Source: Escherichia phage 241
Direction: 5' to 3' (one strand)
Sequence record: OR924452
DNA: 64,000 bases
Under the pieces are notes generated by a model that was not told where the DNA came from, searched no databases, and was given only the letters and a program-made list of their open reading frames with translations. The first letter of the stretch is position 1; every line of letters starts with the position of its first letter. The position numbers and the translations under genes are program-made. Shown one piece after another: positions 1 to 8,470 of the stretch.

Positions 1-1
1 A

Positions 2-385
2 TCCAGTACTCAACTTTCTTTCAAAGGCACATATTTTGAAACGGGTGACACGTCATTCAATGGTACAGTATTCAGCCTTGTTGGTTGGTGTACTCTTAAC
101 TTTGAAGAATGTCTTGTTTATTTGAACAACACCACAAACTTCGTGTCTTCTGGTGGTTCTGGGCAATCTGCTGGCGTCTTGGGTCTAACGATTAAATCTC
201 AAGGTAACGTGTGGCGTAAAACTGACGCGGGGACAACCACAGTGTTTGCAGTTGACCCAGTCACTAATAAACAAGCCTTAGTTGGATCCGAAATATTGAA
301 TGCTGCGAGTGGGGCAACTATCGCATATTGGGCTGGTGCCGTCCCACCTGGCACATACACGGCTCCAATCAGTGTTGCATTTTAA
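2..385 (+). CDS. tail fibre / tailspike protein, C-terminal fragment (5' end lies outside window)
   Basis: Reading frame open from window start to TAA at 383-385; Gly/Ser/Thr-rich C-terminus; followed by hairpin terminator. Confidence 0.5.
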   Translation, partial: SSTQLSFKGTYFETGDTSFNGTVFSLVGWCTLNFEECLVYLNNTTNFVSSGGSGQSAGVLGLTIKSQGNVWRKTDAGTTTVFAVDPVTNKQALVGSEILNAASGATIAYWAGAVPPGTYTAPISVAF

Positions 386-388
386 TTT

Positions 389-412
389 CCCCCTCCTTCG
401 GGAGGGTTTATT
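389..412 (+). terminator. rho-independent terminator
   Basis: CCCTCC-TTCG-GGAGGG hairpin followed by TTTATT. Confidence 0.6.
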
Positions 413-432
413 AGAAAAACAGGAGATTCATC

Positions 433-2913
433 ATGAATCCGCAATTTGCTCAACCGAAAGGTTCTACTTCAAAAGAAACGAACAAAGATAGCATCGCCCG
501 TAAATTTGGGTGCAAAAAGTCGGAAGTCGTTTATGCCAAAGCGGGACAGTCTTTGTCTGGTTATAAAGTGATCTACGATAAGGTGTCTCAACGTGCCTAC
601 GCTCTCCCTTCTAACATTGGTGCTGTAACGGTCACCAGTTTAGTTGACGGCATCCTCACGCACTCTGGAGGCACTGTAGATTTGGGTGCGCTGGCGGTGT
701 TGCGTGAGGAATACGTCATTCTGATAGAAAATTTCACTTCCGGATTTACGATTCGTGTCAAGAACGAAGTCGTGAGCGATGGAGTGAATTTATACCGCTG
801 GGGTGGTGGTTTACCAAAGACTGTCAATGCTGGTGAAGATCTAGACTCCACTGGAGGGATTAGCGTGGGGGCGTGGATTAGCGCGGGCGTTGCTTCATTG
901 AGGAACGATCTTGCTGCTAATGATGGGTTTAAATTTATTGGGCAATGTCCAGATATAGCAACATTAAGGACAATTGAACCTGGCGTCAATGGTCAAAGAA
1001 TTATATTACGGCAACATACGGCTGGAACTGGTCTTGGCGGCGGTTCATTTAGGGCTGTAGTTGATGGCACCGGATATGAAGACGATAACGGAGTGGTTAT
1101 TAAAACAACTGGCGGTGCCGCCTGGCTACGCCTCAACGCAGATAGAGTTAATCCGTTTATGTTTGGGGCAACAGGTGGTGTGGACGACACTGTGGCTGTT
1201 CAGGCCAGCGTAGATAGTGGTCGAGCCACCGAACTAACTGCGCCATTCAACGTCACTTCCATTAAGCTGAAGAAAAAATCTGCAAGTATCTACGGGTCAG
1301 GTATGCACATCTCAAGGCTAGTGCAAAAACCAGGGGTGGCTGGTGACTGTGTGGTTATTGAAGATACCTGCTCGCTTATTAAATTGGATAATTTCGGTAT
1401 TTACGGAACTGGTGCACAGCAAGATACTGCATTCACTGCGGGAACGCGTGGATTAGTTGTTCCAACCCCCACCGGACTTTCTACAAACTACCCATTTAAC
1501 ACATCAGCAGACCCACGAAGGGATTTGTGTATCAACAACGTGCATATTGCTGGGTTTGATGAGTATGGACTTAAAATCGAAAATGGAAACTTTTCAGTAT
1601 CAACGACAAACCTTCTTATTAACCACATTAATCAAGTTGGTGCGTATTGCGCAACAACAGACTGGACTTGGACAAATATCCAGATAAATACCTGTGGTAA
1701 GGAGTGTCTTGTCTTAGATGGCGCTGGCAACGCCCGTATTATTGGTGCTAAACTTATTTGGGCTAACTGGCAACCATATGCTGCTTCAGGTAGTTACCCT
1801 GGATTGAAGATAAACAATTGTCAAAACATTACTATGAGTGCTACAGAGGTTCAGGACTGCGGTTCTGATGGCATAATCTTTAAAGACAGTTATTCTATTT
1901 CAATTTCAGGACTAAACACGAACAGAAACAGCATAAACAGCAACTACTCATATAACAACTGCGTATTTGATAGTTGCGACGTTACAATTGATGGGTTCGT
2001 TGGTCTTAACTATTCTTCAAACTCAGGTTCGGGGATACCTTCCAGTGCCGCTAATTTTAGATTCCTGTCTTCAGATTGTACCGTAGTCGTAAACGGAAAT
2101 GTAGAGTCAGAGTATCTCGGTATCTTGTTCCGTGGTGATAACAATATTATTCAGCCAACGAATTCAGACCTTAAAATAAATGGATTGATTAATTACGATA
2201 AAACAAGCATTACATTTCAAAATGTAATGCCTTCATTCGATGGTGTTAGTACCACTCCTGTATTCGTTCCCGCCCCATCAATTATAGGCCAGGCAAACGG
2301 ACTTCGTTTGTCACAAGGAAATAAAGACAAAATCAGGTATACAACATCCAGAGTTCCAGCTGGTGGCGTGTCACTATCTGCAATTCTAATACCAACAATA
2401 ACTGGCGCTGAAACGTTTAATATTATTGTTCTGGGTACTGGATTTGGCTCTACCAACAATAGCCTCTACTTTCAGTTAAATGTCGACTCATCAGGAAATC
2501 AAAGCGTTGCATTACTTATCAGTGGCGATGGTCAAACACAAGTTCTTTCTGGGGTGATTCCGGATGAATTTAAGATACAAAGTGGAGTTCCGTACCATTT
2601 TGCATTGGGTGCTGCTCCTGGGAGATTCTGGTGGAGTATATTAAATATTCAAACAGGTTCACGTATAAGAAGGGCATTTAGACGTGATTACTTAAGCGCT
2701 CCATTTAACAGCTTATTTGGTAATGATGTTTCTATAAATTTCTTCTCAGGTGAAGGTTCATCAGATGAAGCATGCTCTGGGATTGGGGCAAAAGTTTATG
2801 CTGGAGCATTCAGTTCTGAATCTGATTATTGCGCAAGCAGATACTACAGTTTGTACAATCCTATAGACCCATCTAAAATGTTTAGCTATAGAACACTTGA
2901 TGGCTCCATATAA
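433..2913 (+). CDS. tailspike protein with pectate-lyase-like right-handed beta-helix (probable polysaccharide depolymerase)
   Basis: 826 aa; motif VNPFMFGATGGVDDTVAVQASVD typical of pectate-lyase-fold tailspikes; repetitive N/S/T/G-rich beta-helix-like segments; AGGAGA RBS before ATG. Confidence 0.7.
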   Translation: MNPQFAQPKGSTSKETNKDSIARKFGCKKSEVVYAKAGQSLSGYKVIYDKVSQRAYALPSNIGAVTVTSLVDGILTHSGGTVDLGALAVLREEYVILIENFTSGFTIRVKNEVVSDGVNLYRWGGGLPKTVNAGEDLDSTGGISVGAWISAGVASLRNDLAANDGFKFIGQCPDIATLRTIEPGVNGQRIILRQHTAGTGLGGGSFRAVVDGTGYEDDNGVVIKTTGGAAWLRLNADRVNPFMFGATGGVDDTVAVQASVDSGRATELTAPFNVTSIKLKKKSASIYGSGMHISRLVQKPGVAGDCVVIEDTCSLIKLDNFGIYGTGAQQDTAFTAGTRGLVVPTPTGLSTNYPFNTSADPRRDLCINNVHIAGFDEYGLKIENGNFSVSTTNLLINHINQVGAYCATTDWTWTNIQINTCGKECLVLDGAGNARIIGAKLIWANWQPYAASGSYPGLKINNCQNITMSATEVQDCGSDGIIFKDSYSISISGLNTNRNSINSNYSYNNCVFDSCDVTIDGFVGLNYSSNSGSGIPSSAANFRFLSSDCTVVVNGNVESEYLGILFRGDNNIIQPTNSDLKINGLINYDKTSITFQNVMPSFDGVSTTPVFVPAPSIIGQANGLRLSQGNKDKIRYTTSRVPAGGVSLSAILIPTITGAETFNIIVLGTGFGSTNNSLYFQLNVDSSGNQSVALLISGDGQTQVLSGVIPDEFKIQSGVPYHFALGAAPGRFWWSILNIQTGSRIRRAFRRDYLSAPFNSLFGNDVSINFFSGEGSSDEACSGIGAKVYAGAFSSESDYCASRYYSLYNPIDPSKMFSYRTLDGSI

Positions 2914-2917
2914 CAAA

Positions 2918-2944
2918 AACCCCGCTTCAGCGGGGTTTTTATTT
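2918..2944 (+). terminator. rho-independent terminator
   Basis: CCCCGC-TTCA-GCGGGG hairpin followed by TTTTTATTT directly after the tailspike stop. Confidence 0.7.
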
Positions 2945-2966
2945 CTATCTGTCTGTTGGCTGTATA

Positions 2967-2974
2967 CTAAATAT
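2967..2974 (+). promoter_or_regulatory. late-promoter-like motif CTAAATAT
   Basis: CTAAATAT about 30 nt upstream of ATG 3006; TATAAAT also present at 2978-2984. Confidence 0.4.
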
Positions 2975-3005
2975 CTCTATAAATGGCACTCGATGGAGCA
3001 TCAAA

Positions 3006-6000
3006 ATGCAATCTACAAATCTAAACCGTCGCCCGTATTGGGACGACTGGAATCCTGGAAAACGGTTTTCACGGATTCTTTTTCGCCCGATGCCTATTAA
3101 AGTTCAGACTCGTGAACTAAACCAGATGCAGACTATTCTGCAAGATCAGATTGAAAAGCTGGGAAACCATTTGTTCAAAGATGGATCTATGGTTATCCCT
3201 GGTGGTCTGACGATTACCAACGCCGCTGTATCTATGAAATTCACTCTGGCTGGCGGTACTGAGTTTACTGATCTGGAAGGGATTACTGAACTTTATGTTC
3301 TGGGAAAAGACAATAATGCCAAAGCGCGTGTGCTATCTCTTGAACGTGATCTGTCTGCTCCGGATACGATGTTGGCCATCCTTGAAATGACAGAAGTGGG
3401 TAATGCAGATGGCTTCCACGTCAACGACAATCTGTATTTCCAAACCTATGACGTCAATGACAACTTCATTCGTATTGGTTATGGTATCGCAGCTGCGGTG
3501 ACTGGTTCTATCGTCGCTCGTATGACGAAGGGCGTTTACTTCATTCGTGGGATGTTCCTTGATGTTGATGACGCGACTCTCATCGTCGATAAAACTTCAA
3601 ACACTTCTTCCCATCGCGTCGGGTTTAAAGTCACTGAAACCATCGTGACTGAATCTGAAGACGAATCCCTTTATTCAAACGCTCAGGGAACGATTAACTC
3701 CAAAGCCCCAGGCGCTCATCGTCTTCGAATAGATCTGGTCTTATCTCGATTTGATTATGATGCTGTGGTTGAAGACTTTGTTGAACTGGCCAAAGTTCGT
3801 GATGGTAAAATCCAGTCTATGGTGACTCAGTCCACCTATAATATTCTGGAAGACACGTTGGCTCAACGGACGTATGAAACCAACGGCGATTACAACGTTT
3901 CAACGCATCAGATCGACATCCGCGAACACCTGAAAGTCAATAACAATGGTGGTGTATTCAATGCTGCTGATGGCGGCGACGAAAGTAAATTCGTGTCTGT
4001 AATGAAACCAGGTATTTCCTATGTTCGCGGTCGTCGTATCGAAAACGTCGGGGAAGAGTTGGTGATCGTTGACAAGGCACGGGATACCGATGTCCTGAAT
4101 AACACGCCTGTCGCAGTTGCTACAGGGAATTATCTGGTCACCAAGAACTCCAAAGGTGTTCCAGTAATATCTCGCACTGTGCGATACAAGTTATTGAACG
4201 CATCTGGCGCTGCTCAAGCCACGGCGTTGTGTATATCCGCTGAACGCAATTCAACTGAATTCCGTCTGTACATGCGTGATTTGGTTGTGACTGGGGACGC
4301 GTCCACTATCACCAAAGTGTCTTATGAAGAAAGTGGTATCACCATGTTCTCTGCTGAACTGGAATCCAACCAGTTTAACCAGAGTTCTATGGTAGACTTG
4401 ATCTTCTCTCTTCCGGTCTTCGGTGTTAAAACATTAGCGCCAACAGGTTCCGTGGATATCAACTACACAGTCCTCAGAACTTATAAGGTGACGCTAGACA
4501 GCAGCGGTTCTGGTTCTATTTCAGCTCCGCTGGGATATAGTTTCTCTCCTGAATTTTCGTTGTATTCTTCTGCGAAATCCGATGGTTCAGAAGCGCAATT
4601 TGATATCTCTGGCTCTTTGTCACTGACTGGTTCTCCGGTGGGTTCGGCTTTGCAGATTTCCCTGGGTAGCGGTAATGCTAACCAGTCAATCAATTTGCTG
4701 GCACTGATGATCCGCACTACGGCCACGATCAAAACGAAGACGATAACTGAAACCACAGAGTCTGTGACTTTTACTTCCCAAACCAGTAGACCTCTGGCAA
4801 ATCACGACGGCTGGAAATTGGTATCTGTCAAAAATGATACTGGCGCGGACGTGACTTCGAGCTTCACCCTCGACGGTGGCCAACGCGATGCGGGATATTA
4901 CAAGGCTAATCTGTTATCCACCGCTGGAGCCATTTCAGGGACGTATACGGTGGTGTATCAATACTTCGCGCATAGTTCGGGGGATTTCTTCTCAGCGGAT
5001 TCGTATACTTCAATGGATTACAAAGATATCCCGAATTATACATCCTCCACATCAGGGGCGGTGTATGGTTTGGCCGATAGCCTTGATTTCCGTCCGAAAA
5101 TTACCAACGGGACATCCGACACTGATATGGTTCGCCCGAATACGGCTGTCATCCTGGACACAGAGTATTATTTGCCTCGTATCGACGCGATTTATCTGGC
5201 AGATAATGGCGTGTTTGGTGTAGCCCGTGGCATCAGTTCCAACAACCTGGCGTCCCCAGCAATACCTGCAAACTCCATGCGTTTGTATGAACTGTTGATT
5301 CCCCCATACACGCCGAATATCGATGATATACAAATTCGCACCATCGATAACCGTCGTTATACGATGCGTGATATCGGTAAACTGGAAACGCGTATTTCCA
5401 ACGTTGAATACTACACCTCTCTGTCGCAGCTGGAATCTTCGGCGATGACACAACAGGTATTTGATCCAATCACGGGTAATCCGCGATTCAAAAACGGTAT
5501 CGCCGCCGATCCATTCAAAGACTTCCGTCTTATTGATGATCTGTCTGAAGATTGGATGGGATCTATCGATACGGAAAATGGACGTTTGCGTCCGTTTGTT
5601 CAACAGAACGCCGTTGACATGACTCCAGTAGGCTGGAACAAAGTGATGGATGGTATGGTGGTTTGTAACTACACGCCTGAAATCTCCGTGAACCAAGAAT
5701 ACGCGACGACGACGATCAACGTTAACCCGTATGCTGTATTCAACTGGGAAGGTTTCTTGAAGATTAACCCGACCACGGATTACTGGTTTGAAAACTACTA
5801 TGTCGCCCCGCGTGTTATCAATGAAACGATCAACACTCGTGGTACTGTACAAGAAGGTTCGGTGTACGGGACGTGGCGTACTGTTTCTGTTTCTGATCGT
5901 GTTTGGGAGCCGCATGGCGCTGGTGGTGTGTGGTGGGGATACCGCTATCGCACGACTGTTTCTGCCCGTGATGTCACCACATACACATACACGGACAAAA

Positions 6001-7844
6001 CAACCACGACCATGACTGGCGAACAGATTGTGGAAACGCAGGTTATCCCATACATGCGCGAAATTGATATTTCTTTCGACGCTTCTGGGTTGCGACCTTT
6101 CACTCGCATGTATGCATTCTTCTCAGGTCGTGATGTGAATCTGTATTGCAAGCCGAATGGTGGTAATTTTGGTGACCCAATCACCACTGATGCCAATGGC
6201 GCAGTCAAAGGCGTGTTCCGCGTTCCTCAGAACGATACGATCAAGTTCAACACAGGTGACAACGTGTTCCGCTTGACGGATAGCCCCGTTGACAGTAAAT
6301 CTGCGGATGATACGCTGACTAATGCTGAAATTGTTCACAAATCTTTCGGTAAGAAACAAGGGATTCAAAAGACCTTTGTCAATACTCGAGTTCTGGGTTA
6401 TACCGCAAGCACCAGCACCGAAACCAGCACTTCTGAAGTTGTGGTCGACCAATGGCGTGATCCAATTGCCCAATCGTTTATGGTGGCAACTAAGATCGGT
6501 GGTGAATATATCGAAGGCGTGGAAGTATTCTTCTCCACCAAGTCACGTGATGTTCCGATCACCCTGGAAATTCGCGAGATGGAGAATGGCTTACCATCCC
6601 ATACCGTCATAACTCGTAAAACTTTGAACCCATCTGAGGTGACGATCTCTACAGACTCGTCTGGCGGTACGAAGTTCACCTTCGATTATCCGGTATACTT
6701 GCAAGCATCGACTGAGTTTGCTATTGTTCTGTTGGCGAATACTCAGGATTACAACGCGTATATCGCGGAAATGGGCAAGAAAAACCTTCTGTCCAACGAA
6801 TATATCGCCAAACAACCGTATACAGGGGTGTTCTTCACTTCTTCAAACGGTTCTACATGGTCTCCCAACCAGATGGCAGATATGAAGTTCCGTGTTTATC
6901 GTTGTAACTTTGCTGCTGGTCAGAACGTTGTAACATTTGATCCGAAACTTGGACCGAAACAACGTCCGCTGGGGTTGAACACTCTCAACTGTGTGAGCGG
7001 GTCTTCTGTCGTGACCGTGTTTGCACCTGGTCATGGTTTGGTTGCTGGGAACAATGTCACTCTGTCTGAATTGACAGGCGGTTGTGGCTTTACTCCTGAA
7101 CAACTTAACAAAACGTTTACTGTGACAGATGCGAGCTATACTTCATTCAAGATTGACGTCGGTTCAGCAGCAGACAGCAACGGGCAAATCGGCGGGGATA
7201 ATGCTTCGTTCTTGGGCAATTATCTGGTTGATATGTTCTATGCGAGTGTTACAAATTCAGCTCTGGAAGGTTCGATTCTGAAATTGGAATACCGTTATCG
7301 CGATGCCACTTCAAATTCTATGTCTGATTGGGCTGAGTTTGAAACTGACACTGACGTGGCGTTGCCGACTGAAGGGATCTATCGTCAGGTTGGGGATTTC
7401 CAGATCCGAGCCACCATGACGCGCAGTGAAAACAACGTGTACACCGCTCCAATGATTGATGGCGATGACCTGAGCGTAATCTTCAACTCATACGGCGTGG
7501 ATCCATTTGAAGATGTCTTCAAATATGTGACAAAAGACATCGGATTTGATAACCCATGTTCGACTGTGAAGTTGTTCTTTGGTGCAATGCTCCCATCTCA
7601 GTCTTCTATGAAGGTGCAGGTGAAACTTCTTAGAGCAGGTCAGGAGATGGATAGTGTGGCTTGGGAAGATGTTACTCCAACGTCGCCTCTGGTCAACGAC
7701 GGTTCTACATTCTTTGAATATGAATACGACAAGACTGTGGCGAGCAATAACCCGTTTGTTGGCCTGAAAGTCCGAGCGCTTGTACGGGGGAACCGCGTTG
7801 CTCCTCCATCATTCAAAGACTTCCGTCTTATTGCTCTGGCATAA
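3006..7844 (+). CDS. large virion structural protein (1612 aa), probable tail fibre / baseplate-associated adhesin
   Basis: Long uninterrupted ORF with late-promoter-like motif upstream; position between tailspike gene and neck gene 13; no specific family recognised. Confidence 0.55.
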   Translation: MQSTNLNRRPYWDDWNPGKRFSRILFRPMPIKVQTRELNQMQTILQDQIEKLGNHLFKDGSMVIPGGLTITNAAVSMKFTLAGGTEFTDLEGITELYVLGKDNNAKARVLSLERDLSAPDTMLAILEMTEVGNADGFHVNDNLYFQTYDVNDNFIRIGYGIAAAVTGSIVARMTKGVYFIRGMFLDVDDATLIVDKTSNTSSHRVGFKVTETIVTESEDESLYSNAQGTINSKAPGAHRLRIDLVLSRFDYDAVVEDFVELAKVRDGKIQSMVTQSTYNILEDTLAQRTYETNGDYNVSTHQIDIREHLKVNNNGGVFNAADGGDESKFVSVMKPGISYVRGRRIENVGEELVIVDKARDTDVLNNTPVAVATGNYLVTKNSKGVPVISRTVRYKLLNASGAAQATALCISAERNSTEFRLYMRDLVVTGDASTITKVSYEESGITMFSAELESNQFNQSSMVDLIFSLPVFGVKTLAPTGSVDINYTVLRTYKVTLDSSGSGSISAPLGYSFSPEFSLYSSAKSDGSEAQFDISGSLSLTGSPVGSALQISLGSGNANQSINLLALMIRTTATIKTKTITETTESVTFTSQTSRPLANHDGWKLVSVKNDTGADVTSSFTLDGGQRDAGYYKANLLSTAGAISGTYTVVYQYFAHSSGDFFSADSYTSMDYKDIPNYTSSTSGAVYGLADSLDFRPKITNGTSDTDMVRPNTAVILDTEYYLPRIDAIYLADNGVFGVARGISSNNLASPAIPANSMRLYELLIPPYTPNIDDIQIRTIDNRRYTMRDIGKLETRISNVEYYTSLSQLESSAMTQQVFDPITGNPRFKNGIAADPFKDFRLIDDLSEDWMGSIDTENGRLRPFVQQNAVDMTPVGWNKVMDGMVVCNYTPEISVNQEYATTTINVNPYAVFNWEGFLKINPTTDYWFENYYVAPRVINETINTRGTVQEGSVYGTWRTVSVSDRVWEPHGAGGVWWGYRYRTTVSARDVTTYTYTDKTTTTMTGEQIVETQVIPYMREIDISFDASGLRPFTRMYAFFSGRDVNLYCKPNGGNFGDPITTDANGAVKGVFRVPQNDTIKFNTGDNVFRLTDSPVDSKSADDTLTNAEIVHKSFGKKQGIQKTFVNTRVLGYTASTSTETSTSEVVVDQWRDPIAQSFMVATKIGGEYIEGVEVFFSTKSRDVPITLEIREMENGLPSHTVITRKTLNPSEVTISTDSSGGTKFTFDYPVYLQASTEFAIVLLANTQDYNAYIAEMGKKNLLSNEYIAKQPYTGVFFTSSNGSTWSPNQMADMKFRVYRCNFAAGQNVVTFDPKLGPKQRPLGLNTLNCVSGSSVVTVFAPGHGLVAGNNVTLSELTGGCGFTPEQLNKTFTVTDASYTSFKIDVGSAADSNGQIGGDNASFLGNYLVDMFYASVTNSALEGSILKLEYRYRDATSNSMSDWAEFETDTDVALPTEGIYRQVGDFQIRATMTRSENNVYTAPMIDGDDLSVIFNSYGVDPFEDVFKYVTKDIGFDNPCSTVKLFFGAMLPSQSSMKVQVKLLRAGQEMDSVAWEDVTPTSPLVNDGSTFFEYEYDKTVASNNPFVGLKVRALVRGNRVAPPSFKDFRLIALA

Positions 7845-7896
7845 ATAATGTTGAAAGGTGGGCGTAAAGCCCACCAAACCAATAGAGGATAAAGAT

Positions 7897-8145
7897 ATGC
7901 GTGGAATGAAAGTACAGGGGCACGCATCCATGTTGAGAAGCAGTTCTTGTCCAGGCGCGATCATTTGTACTGATCATGCTGCAGGTATGGCTGCATTGCA
8001 AGCCCGTCAACGCAACGAAACCCGTGAAGCCACCATTGTTGAACAATCAAACCAGATATCGAATCTGGAGGCGACGATCAAAATGATGGCTGAAAAGTTG
8101 GGGATAGAAATCCCCGAAGGAGGTCAGAATGGCGACGCAAGCTGA
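7897..8145 (+). CDS. hypothetical protein (predicted coiled-coil)
   Basis: ATG at 7897 preceded by GAGGA; ORF track start at 7858 is GTG inside a hairpin. Confidence 0.4.
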   Translation: MRGMKVQGHASMLRSSSCPGAIICTDHAAGMAALQARQRNETREATIVEQSNQISNLEATIKMMAEKLGIEIPEGGQNGDAS

Positions 8146-8470
8146 AAGATCTGGGCTTGATATCCGTGGTATCTTGACTGCTGTCGTGGCTTCTGCATTG
8201 GTCTCGGCGGCGTCGTTCCTTTGGTTTATGGGTGGGATGGAAACACGCGTGAATGTATTGGAGCGAGATTCTAATAAAATGGATCAGGTCCTTCAAAAGG
8301 TGAATGACATGAGTGAGCGCATGGCGATCATGAATACAGACCTCGCATATGTCAAACAAAATATGGCTGAGTTAAAACTCAATAGCAGCAGCCTATCAGA
8401 CGATGTCCGCACATTGCGGATTACTGTATCTGATTTGCAGCAACGAGGGAATAACAATGGCCGTCAATAA
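8129..8470 (+). CDS. hypothetical membrane protein (single N-terminal TM helix plus coiled-coil)
   Basis: Hydrophobic stretch ILTAVVASALVSAASFLWF near N-terminus; overlaps neighbours by short ATGA-type junctions. Confidence 0.45.
   Translation: MATQAERSGLDIRGILTAVVASALVSAASFLWFMGGMETRVNVLERDSNKMDQVLQKVNDMSERMAIMNTDLAYVKQNMAELKLNSSSLSDDVRTLRITVSDLQQRGNNNGRQ

Follow-up and report, generated by a model that had tools for sequence, protein, structure and literature searches.

The interval 2-7844 of the window, which denotes the whole 64,000-nt stretch of Escherichia phage 241 that was analyzed, is the distal end of a Kuttervirus tsp-vriC locus, i.e., the receptor-binding end of a Vi01-like Salmonella/E. 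coli phage, and is ordinary for the family. Genome identity and gene order assign the window to Kuttervirus (Ackermannviridae), and positions 1-8000 share 97.2% identity with the Salmonella phages PS5, Marshall, Mooltan, and Matapan. Three reading frames, present as the initial annotation had described them, are arranged as the end of a TSP2-slot gene, a gene for an 826-aa protein, and vriC, which is also the order in Marshall, Vi01, and S117; the vriC gene flanking the tsp genes of Ackermannviridae has been described previously (PMC8432352). Since all three frames match PHROG families (E = 0, 0, and 3e-82) and have annotated counterparts in Marshall and Vi01, none of them is a chance open reading frame. 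Two antisense frames at 5052-5915 (287 aa) and 597-989 had no PHROG match and were taken as spurious. A Rfam search of the whole window gave no match, no tandem repeats were seen in 1-8200, and the 826-aa and 1612-aa proteins had no match in NCBIfam.

Table 1. Features of the distal tsp-vriC locus, in positions of the window.
Feature	Position	Strand	Remarks
Tailspike gene in TSP2 slot, 3′ end	2..385	+	127 codons and stop; frame open to window edge
Weak terminator-like site between tailspike genes	391..406	+	Short GC hairpin, then TTTATT; consensus scan only
TSP1-slot tailspike, N-terminal attachment head (TD1/TD2), residues 1-155	433..897	+	PF18668 and PDB matches
TSP1-slot tailspike, predicted beta-helix body	898..2913	+	PDB 5w6p/6w4q
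Putative active-site codons of the TSP1-slot tailspike	D410 1660-1662; E472 1846-1848; D475 1855-1857; R498 1924-1926; Y527 2011-2013	+	
Rho-independent terminator 3′ of tailspike gene	2915..2940	+	11-bp stem with 6 GC pairs, then T-run
CTAAATA late-promoter-like motif upstream of vriC	2967..2973	+	Core of Ackermannviridae motif
vriC/vrlC	3006..7844	+	1612-aa DUF4815 virion protein, Herelleviridae tripod homolog

The first of the three genes ends with a stop codon at 383-385 (frame 2), and its product aligns to positions 616-742 of the 742 positions of phrog_24271 (E = 3e-82), identifying the gene as the ortholog of Marshall_40 (742 aa). In full-length Marshall_40, residues 1-252 correspond to the CBA120 TSP2 N-terminus (E = 8.6e-157), and the body had no match in PDB or Pfam. 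The hairpin that follows this gene carries no terminator annotation in Marshall, and because CTAAATA is absent between the two tailspike genes, the tsp genes are likely to be co-transcribed by read-through. The terminator behind the 826-aa gene is the top site of the terminator scan, and the Marshall annotation lists it as well. The motif that had been pointed out ahead of the 1612-aa gene was confirmed as CTAAATAT at 2967-2974, 39 nt upstream of the VriC start. CTAAATA is the core of CTAAATAcCcc, a motif characteristic of Ackermannviridae (PMC7283392), and its copy upstream of vriC is a putative late promoter. The window holds 11 occurrences of CTAAATA against 6.3 ± 2.3 expected; at least as many arise in 4 of 100 shuffles, and the count by itself is thus only weakly enriched. 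All 11 lie on the + strand, and eight of them are located 29-49 nt 5′ of a start codon. VriC would then be transcribed after the strong terminator, from its own CTAAATA late-promoter motif.

The 826-aa protein (ATG at 433, stop at 2913, AGGAG at 421-425) is encoded by the last gene of the tsp cluster, directly adjoining vriC. Its N-terminus, which the initial annotation had regarded as a pectate-lyase-type signature, proved to be the attachment head of TSP1 and TSP3. Pfam shows only PF18668 (Tail_spike_N) there, at residues 90-152 (E = 4.4e-15), and no Pectate-lyase or Beta_helix domain was detected in the protein at E <= 0.01; residues 1-174 match CBA120 TSP1 (4oj5, residues 1-176) and residues 3-161 match TSP3 (6nw9, residues 3-163), with E about 1e-46, and the heads of S117 TSP1 and TSP3 are about 52% identical to that of the 826-aa protein. 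The XD2/XD3 (gp10-like) domains are absent from the protein, residues 1-155 do not align with TSP2 residues 1-160, and ahead of the neck TSP2 is matched only weakly, through its D1 head (E = 0.011). Together with the position of the gene and a body predicted to be a beta-helix with paired carboxylates, this head marks the protein as an Ackermannviridae TSP1-type tailspike, in which the beta-helix is read solely from the solved homolog. Kuttervirus TSP1 (CBA120 ORF210, PDB 4oj5; Vi01_170c) occupies the same slot directly upstream of vriC and has the same PF18668 head, whereas the receptor-binding bodies of CBA120 TSP1 (O21) and Vi01 TSP1 are unrelated to the body found here. According to a published model of how the branched spikes assemble, the TSP1 head docks on TSP4 XD3 (PMC11414711), and this docking is presumably shared, so that the TD1/TD2 head of the 826-aa protein would sit on the XD3 domain of TSP4.

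From about residue 156 to residue 826, the protein is 64.5% identical to the O157-specific TSP2 body of CBA120/S117 (PDB 5w6p/6w4q, E about 1e-300), the alignment running end to end through neck, D3′, beta-helix, and D4, and identity is 54.5% to the phiV10 spike and 48.7% to the Rogue1 spike. In the pairwise alignment, catalytic residues D506/E568/D571/R594/Y623 of CBA120 TSP2 correspond to D410/E472/D475/R498/Y527, all five being kept here as well as in the phiV10 and Rogue1 spikes; the equivalent CBA120 TSP2 residues have been tested by mutagenesis (PMC7506556). Two structural ion ligands are changed relative to CBA120 TSP2 (K465 to N369 and N565 to S469). The earlier proposal of a beta-helix tailspike enzymatically equipped for a surface polysaccharide is thus supported by the identity to CBA120 TSP2 and by the conserved catalytic residues, and the alignment implies an active-site cleft between subunits. 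As an acid/base endoglycosidase, the trimeric beta-helix body would bind O-antigen in this cleft and cut it, and the cleavage would allow the virion to reach the outer membrane.

Membership in a TSP subtype requires receptor-binding bodies that are at least about 90% identical, and because its identity to TSP2-1 is 64.5%, the window body is, by alignment, of the same family as TSP2-1 and of a different subtype. The TSP2 N-terminus with XD2-XD3 that defines TSP2-1 is also missing from the 826-aa protein, the TSP2 scaffold in this lineage being carried by the upstream gene. Compared with CBA120/S117 TSP2, the XD2-XD3-D1 scaffold is replaced by the TD1/TD2 head of TSP1/TSP3 and the gene lies in the TSP1 slot beside vriC, whereas phiV10 (Uetakevirus) and the Rogue1-like O157 phages of Drexlerviridae have other virion-attachment N-termini and other phage morphotypes. 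Published body swaps were found among TSP1, TSP3, and TSP4 with a junction after TD1 at about residue 65; in the 826-aa protein, by contrast, the partner comes from the TSP2-1 family, and the junction falls at the head/neck boundary (about residue 155). A body of the O157 spike family, normally carried on the TSP2 scaffold, would here have been joined to the TSP1 scaffold at this boundary.

The body is found at 99% identity or above in only five records, among them Mooltan (100%) and PS5 (99.9%). Every full-length relative of it occurs in an O157-infecting phage or in a carrier of TSP2-1, and it stands nearer to the TSP2-1, phiV10, and Rogue1 spikes (64.5, 54.5, and 48.7%) than those three do to one another (49.6, 44.6, and 39.0%), which places it within the sequence spread of O157-phage spikes. 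[quoted passage not shown] We infer that the body most probably recognizes the O-antigen of E. coli O157 or one that closely resembles it. Against this specificity stand the 35% divergence of the body from the only biochemically characterized member, through which the specificity could have shifted, the two changed ion ligands, and the isolation of Marshall and Mooltan on S. Enteritidis, no O157 data having turned up for these two phages. It is alternatively conceivable, though on balance unlikely, that the body has drifted to another receptor, such as an O157-related O-antigen of Salmonella or other enterobacteria, for example one with N-acetyl-perosamine, and that PS5 enters O157:H7 by another route. 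An identity of just 64.5% to the characterized TSP2-1 body, the isolation of the five carriers on Salmonella, and the two altered interior ion-binding residues would fit such a drift, while the position of the body within the sequence range that the spikes of three unrelated O157-phage groups cover, a catalytic pentad that is intact in all three, and the infection of O157:H7 by PS5 in the absence of TSP2-1 argue against it.

The 1612-aa protein (ATG 3006 to stop 7844, with GGAG at 2995-2998), which the initial annotation had correctly set outside the T4 fiber and baseplate families and had left in an unknown family, is VriC/VrlC, a member of Pfam DUF4815 (PF16075) with 203.5 bits against a cut-off of 30. 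All of the 120 listed VriC homologs carry PF16075. Proteins of about 1600 aa encoded by a gene that always flanks the tsp cluster are conserved in Ackermannviridae, and those of Vi01_169c, Marshall_42, S117 orf161, and Sajous1 gp140 are one and the same, with 98-100% identity, a length of 1612 aa, DUF4815, and an unchanged locus position, and there is no difference of substance between the window VriC and VriC/VrlC of the family. Identity is at least 95% in 175 phage records, whose hosts are Salmonella, E. coli, and Shigella, and stands at about 84% in phages of Klebsiella and Dickeya; the window protein is 100% identical to that of Sa157lw, a phage with different tailspike bodies. The conservation profile is flat, showing neither a hypervariable segment nor a variable tip. 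Hence the suggestion that this block determines host range holds for the tailspike genes, which are the accepted determinants of the family, and is not supported for VriC. Absence of the protein from virions had been named as a point that would speak against the suggestion; in CsCl-purified Sajous1 virions, VriC gave 311 spectra, second only to the capsid protein (PMC10892097), and in EspM4VN it forms a virion band (PMC7283392). More distant DUF4815 proteins of T4-like cyanophages, Vibrio phages, rhizobiophages, and Wolbachia WO share the Pfam family with VriC and are 32-39% identical to it over two thirds or all of the length, some being annotated as “virion structural protein” or “baseplate wedge tail fiber connector”; they differ from VriC in length and in flanking genes, and the Wolbachia WO match is limited to the VriC domain at residues 1150-1310.

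A solved relative was found in the tripod protein of Staphylococcus phage 812. The corresponding 1152-aa PDB chain (9euf and others) is identified as the tripod protein by the phage 812 gene order, in agreement with its description as gp119 (PMC13433997). VriC matches it by phmmer with E = 3.7e-51 in three significant stretches spanning residues 4-1313 at about 26% identity, and tblastn of VriC to the tripod gene gave 1e-27. A model of VriC residues 1-1200 had significant matches only to tripod chains; this N-terminal model is mediocre (pLDDT 74.8, pTM 0.46), with a global TM to the tripod of 0.14-0.20. The model of residues 1101-1612 (pLDDT 84.5) reached a TM of 0.57 to the pre-contraction tripod and only 0.29 to post-contraction chains. 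VriC is homologous to the phage 812 tripod protein in sequence and probably in fold, and like it and the A511 equivalent it is a large and abundant protein, presumably of the tail tip. The two differ in length, VriC having 460 residues more and additional beta domains at about 72-169 and 371-700, and VriC belongs to a phage with a Gram-negative host. The LysM-like C-terminal “hook” of the tripod was not found in VriC, in which Pfam detects DUF4815 only; the VriC C-terminus is modeled as a beta-sandwich, and the alignment of its residues 1457-1591 with tripod residues 1011-1129 is not significant. The model gives the C-terminal 460 residues as a whole three beta-sandwich domains, a type of domain to which carbohydrate binding has been assigned in the tripod. 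The phage 812 tripod is a trimer and a passenger on an arm-scaffold protein, docking on the loops of this scaffold, which arm-segment dimers (PF25691) reinforce (PMC13433997). [quoted passage not shown] The 396-aa protein encoded upstream of TSP4, considered as a docking partner of VriC, matched nothing in PDB and Pfam beyond sub-threshold noise (BppL_N and ubiquitin-like). No experimental structure of VriC or of any Ackermannviridae baseplate was found in PDB or in the literature searched.

Taken as a whole, the reading of this interval as the end of a TSP2-slot gene, an O157-type spike in the TSP1 slot, and VriC as a tripod-like protein of the baseplate rim appears to us quite probable. VriC most likely forms “prongs” at the baseplate periphery, as already proposed in a review (PMC11721090), and presumably does so as trimers. 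Its carbohydrate-binding-type beta-sandwich domains may contact a conserved surface component, and the protein may rearrange at the baseplate switch, strain specificity presumably not being set by VriC; the preference of the model for pre- over post-contraction chains is the only hint of such a rearrangement. A more far-reaching version, which we put forward tentatively and regard as somewhat doubtful, is that VriC is the counterpart, in Gram-negative phages, of the Herelleviridae tripod complex and that the O157-type body on the TSP1 scaffold is a cross-slot transfer involving the TSP2 family. A rim trimer of VriC would bind a conserved feature of the LPS core or outer membrane after the tailspike has cleared the O-antigen, and its tripod-type rearrangement would lock the post-contraction baseplate.

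Other roles for VriC were weighed against this picture. The protein could be a structural platform only, a rim scaffold for the TSP4 anchor and the branched spikes with neither a ligand nor a conformational role. Such a scaffold would be expected to show the flat conservation seen in VriC, the gene always lies beside the tsp cluster, and the search for a docking scaffold like that of phage 812 found none; the phage 812 tripod is, however, a passenger on a scaffold and not a scaffold itself, the C-terminal 460 residues of VriC are predicted to form three carbohydrate-binding-type beta-sandwiches, and VriC has no part in the published TSP4 anchor model, so that we consider a mere platform rather unlikely. 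More improbable still is a view derived from the initial annotation, in which the 1612-aa protein would be a fiber-like adhesin setting the host range jointly with the tailspikes. This view draws on the size of a virion protein with beta-sandwich domains whose gene adjoins the tsp genes and whose prongs would face the cell, and VriC has loosely been termed “previously associated with host range” (PMC10892097), but it is difficult to reconcile with at least 95% identity in 175 records across differing hosts, about 84% identity in Klebsiella and Dickeya phages, the lack of a variable tip, and the identical VriC of Sa157lw despite its different tailspike bodies. Finally, the name of VriC goes back to the vrl locus of Dichelobacter nodosus, and this history, along with database labels such as “virulence-associated protein,” is all that speaks for a bacterial virulence factor carried as cargo and not as part of the virion. 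The abundance of VriC in purified virions, its homology to a structurally resolved baseplate protein, and the location of its gene in a late structural module behind a late-promoter motif make this hardly credible, and the “virulence factor” reading was dropped on the published virion proteomics.

The locus and its proteins are already known, and neither the placement of the O157-type body nor the relative of VriC alters existing knowledge of the family. The tsp-vriC locus decides which serotypes are attacked by Kuttervirus, and such phages serve as biocontrol and detection agents for Salmonella and E. coli O157. Two small points are of practical use. In the Marshall/Mooltan/Matapan/PS5 lineage, a spike body of the O157 family lies in the TSP1 slot, a link to O157 that subtype tables built at 90% identity would miss. 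VriC, in many records “hypothetical” or “virulence-associated,” now has a solved structural relative, and therefore its role in the Ackermannviridae baseplate becomes testable. If the tripod-complex version were true, one conserved trigger module would be common to Ackermannviridae, T4-like cyanophages, and Herelleviridae, with docking scaffolds that are not detectably related. A cross-slot transfer involving the TSP2 family, a kind of exchange missing from the TSP1/3/4 swaps published so far, would explain the infection of O157:H7 by PS5.

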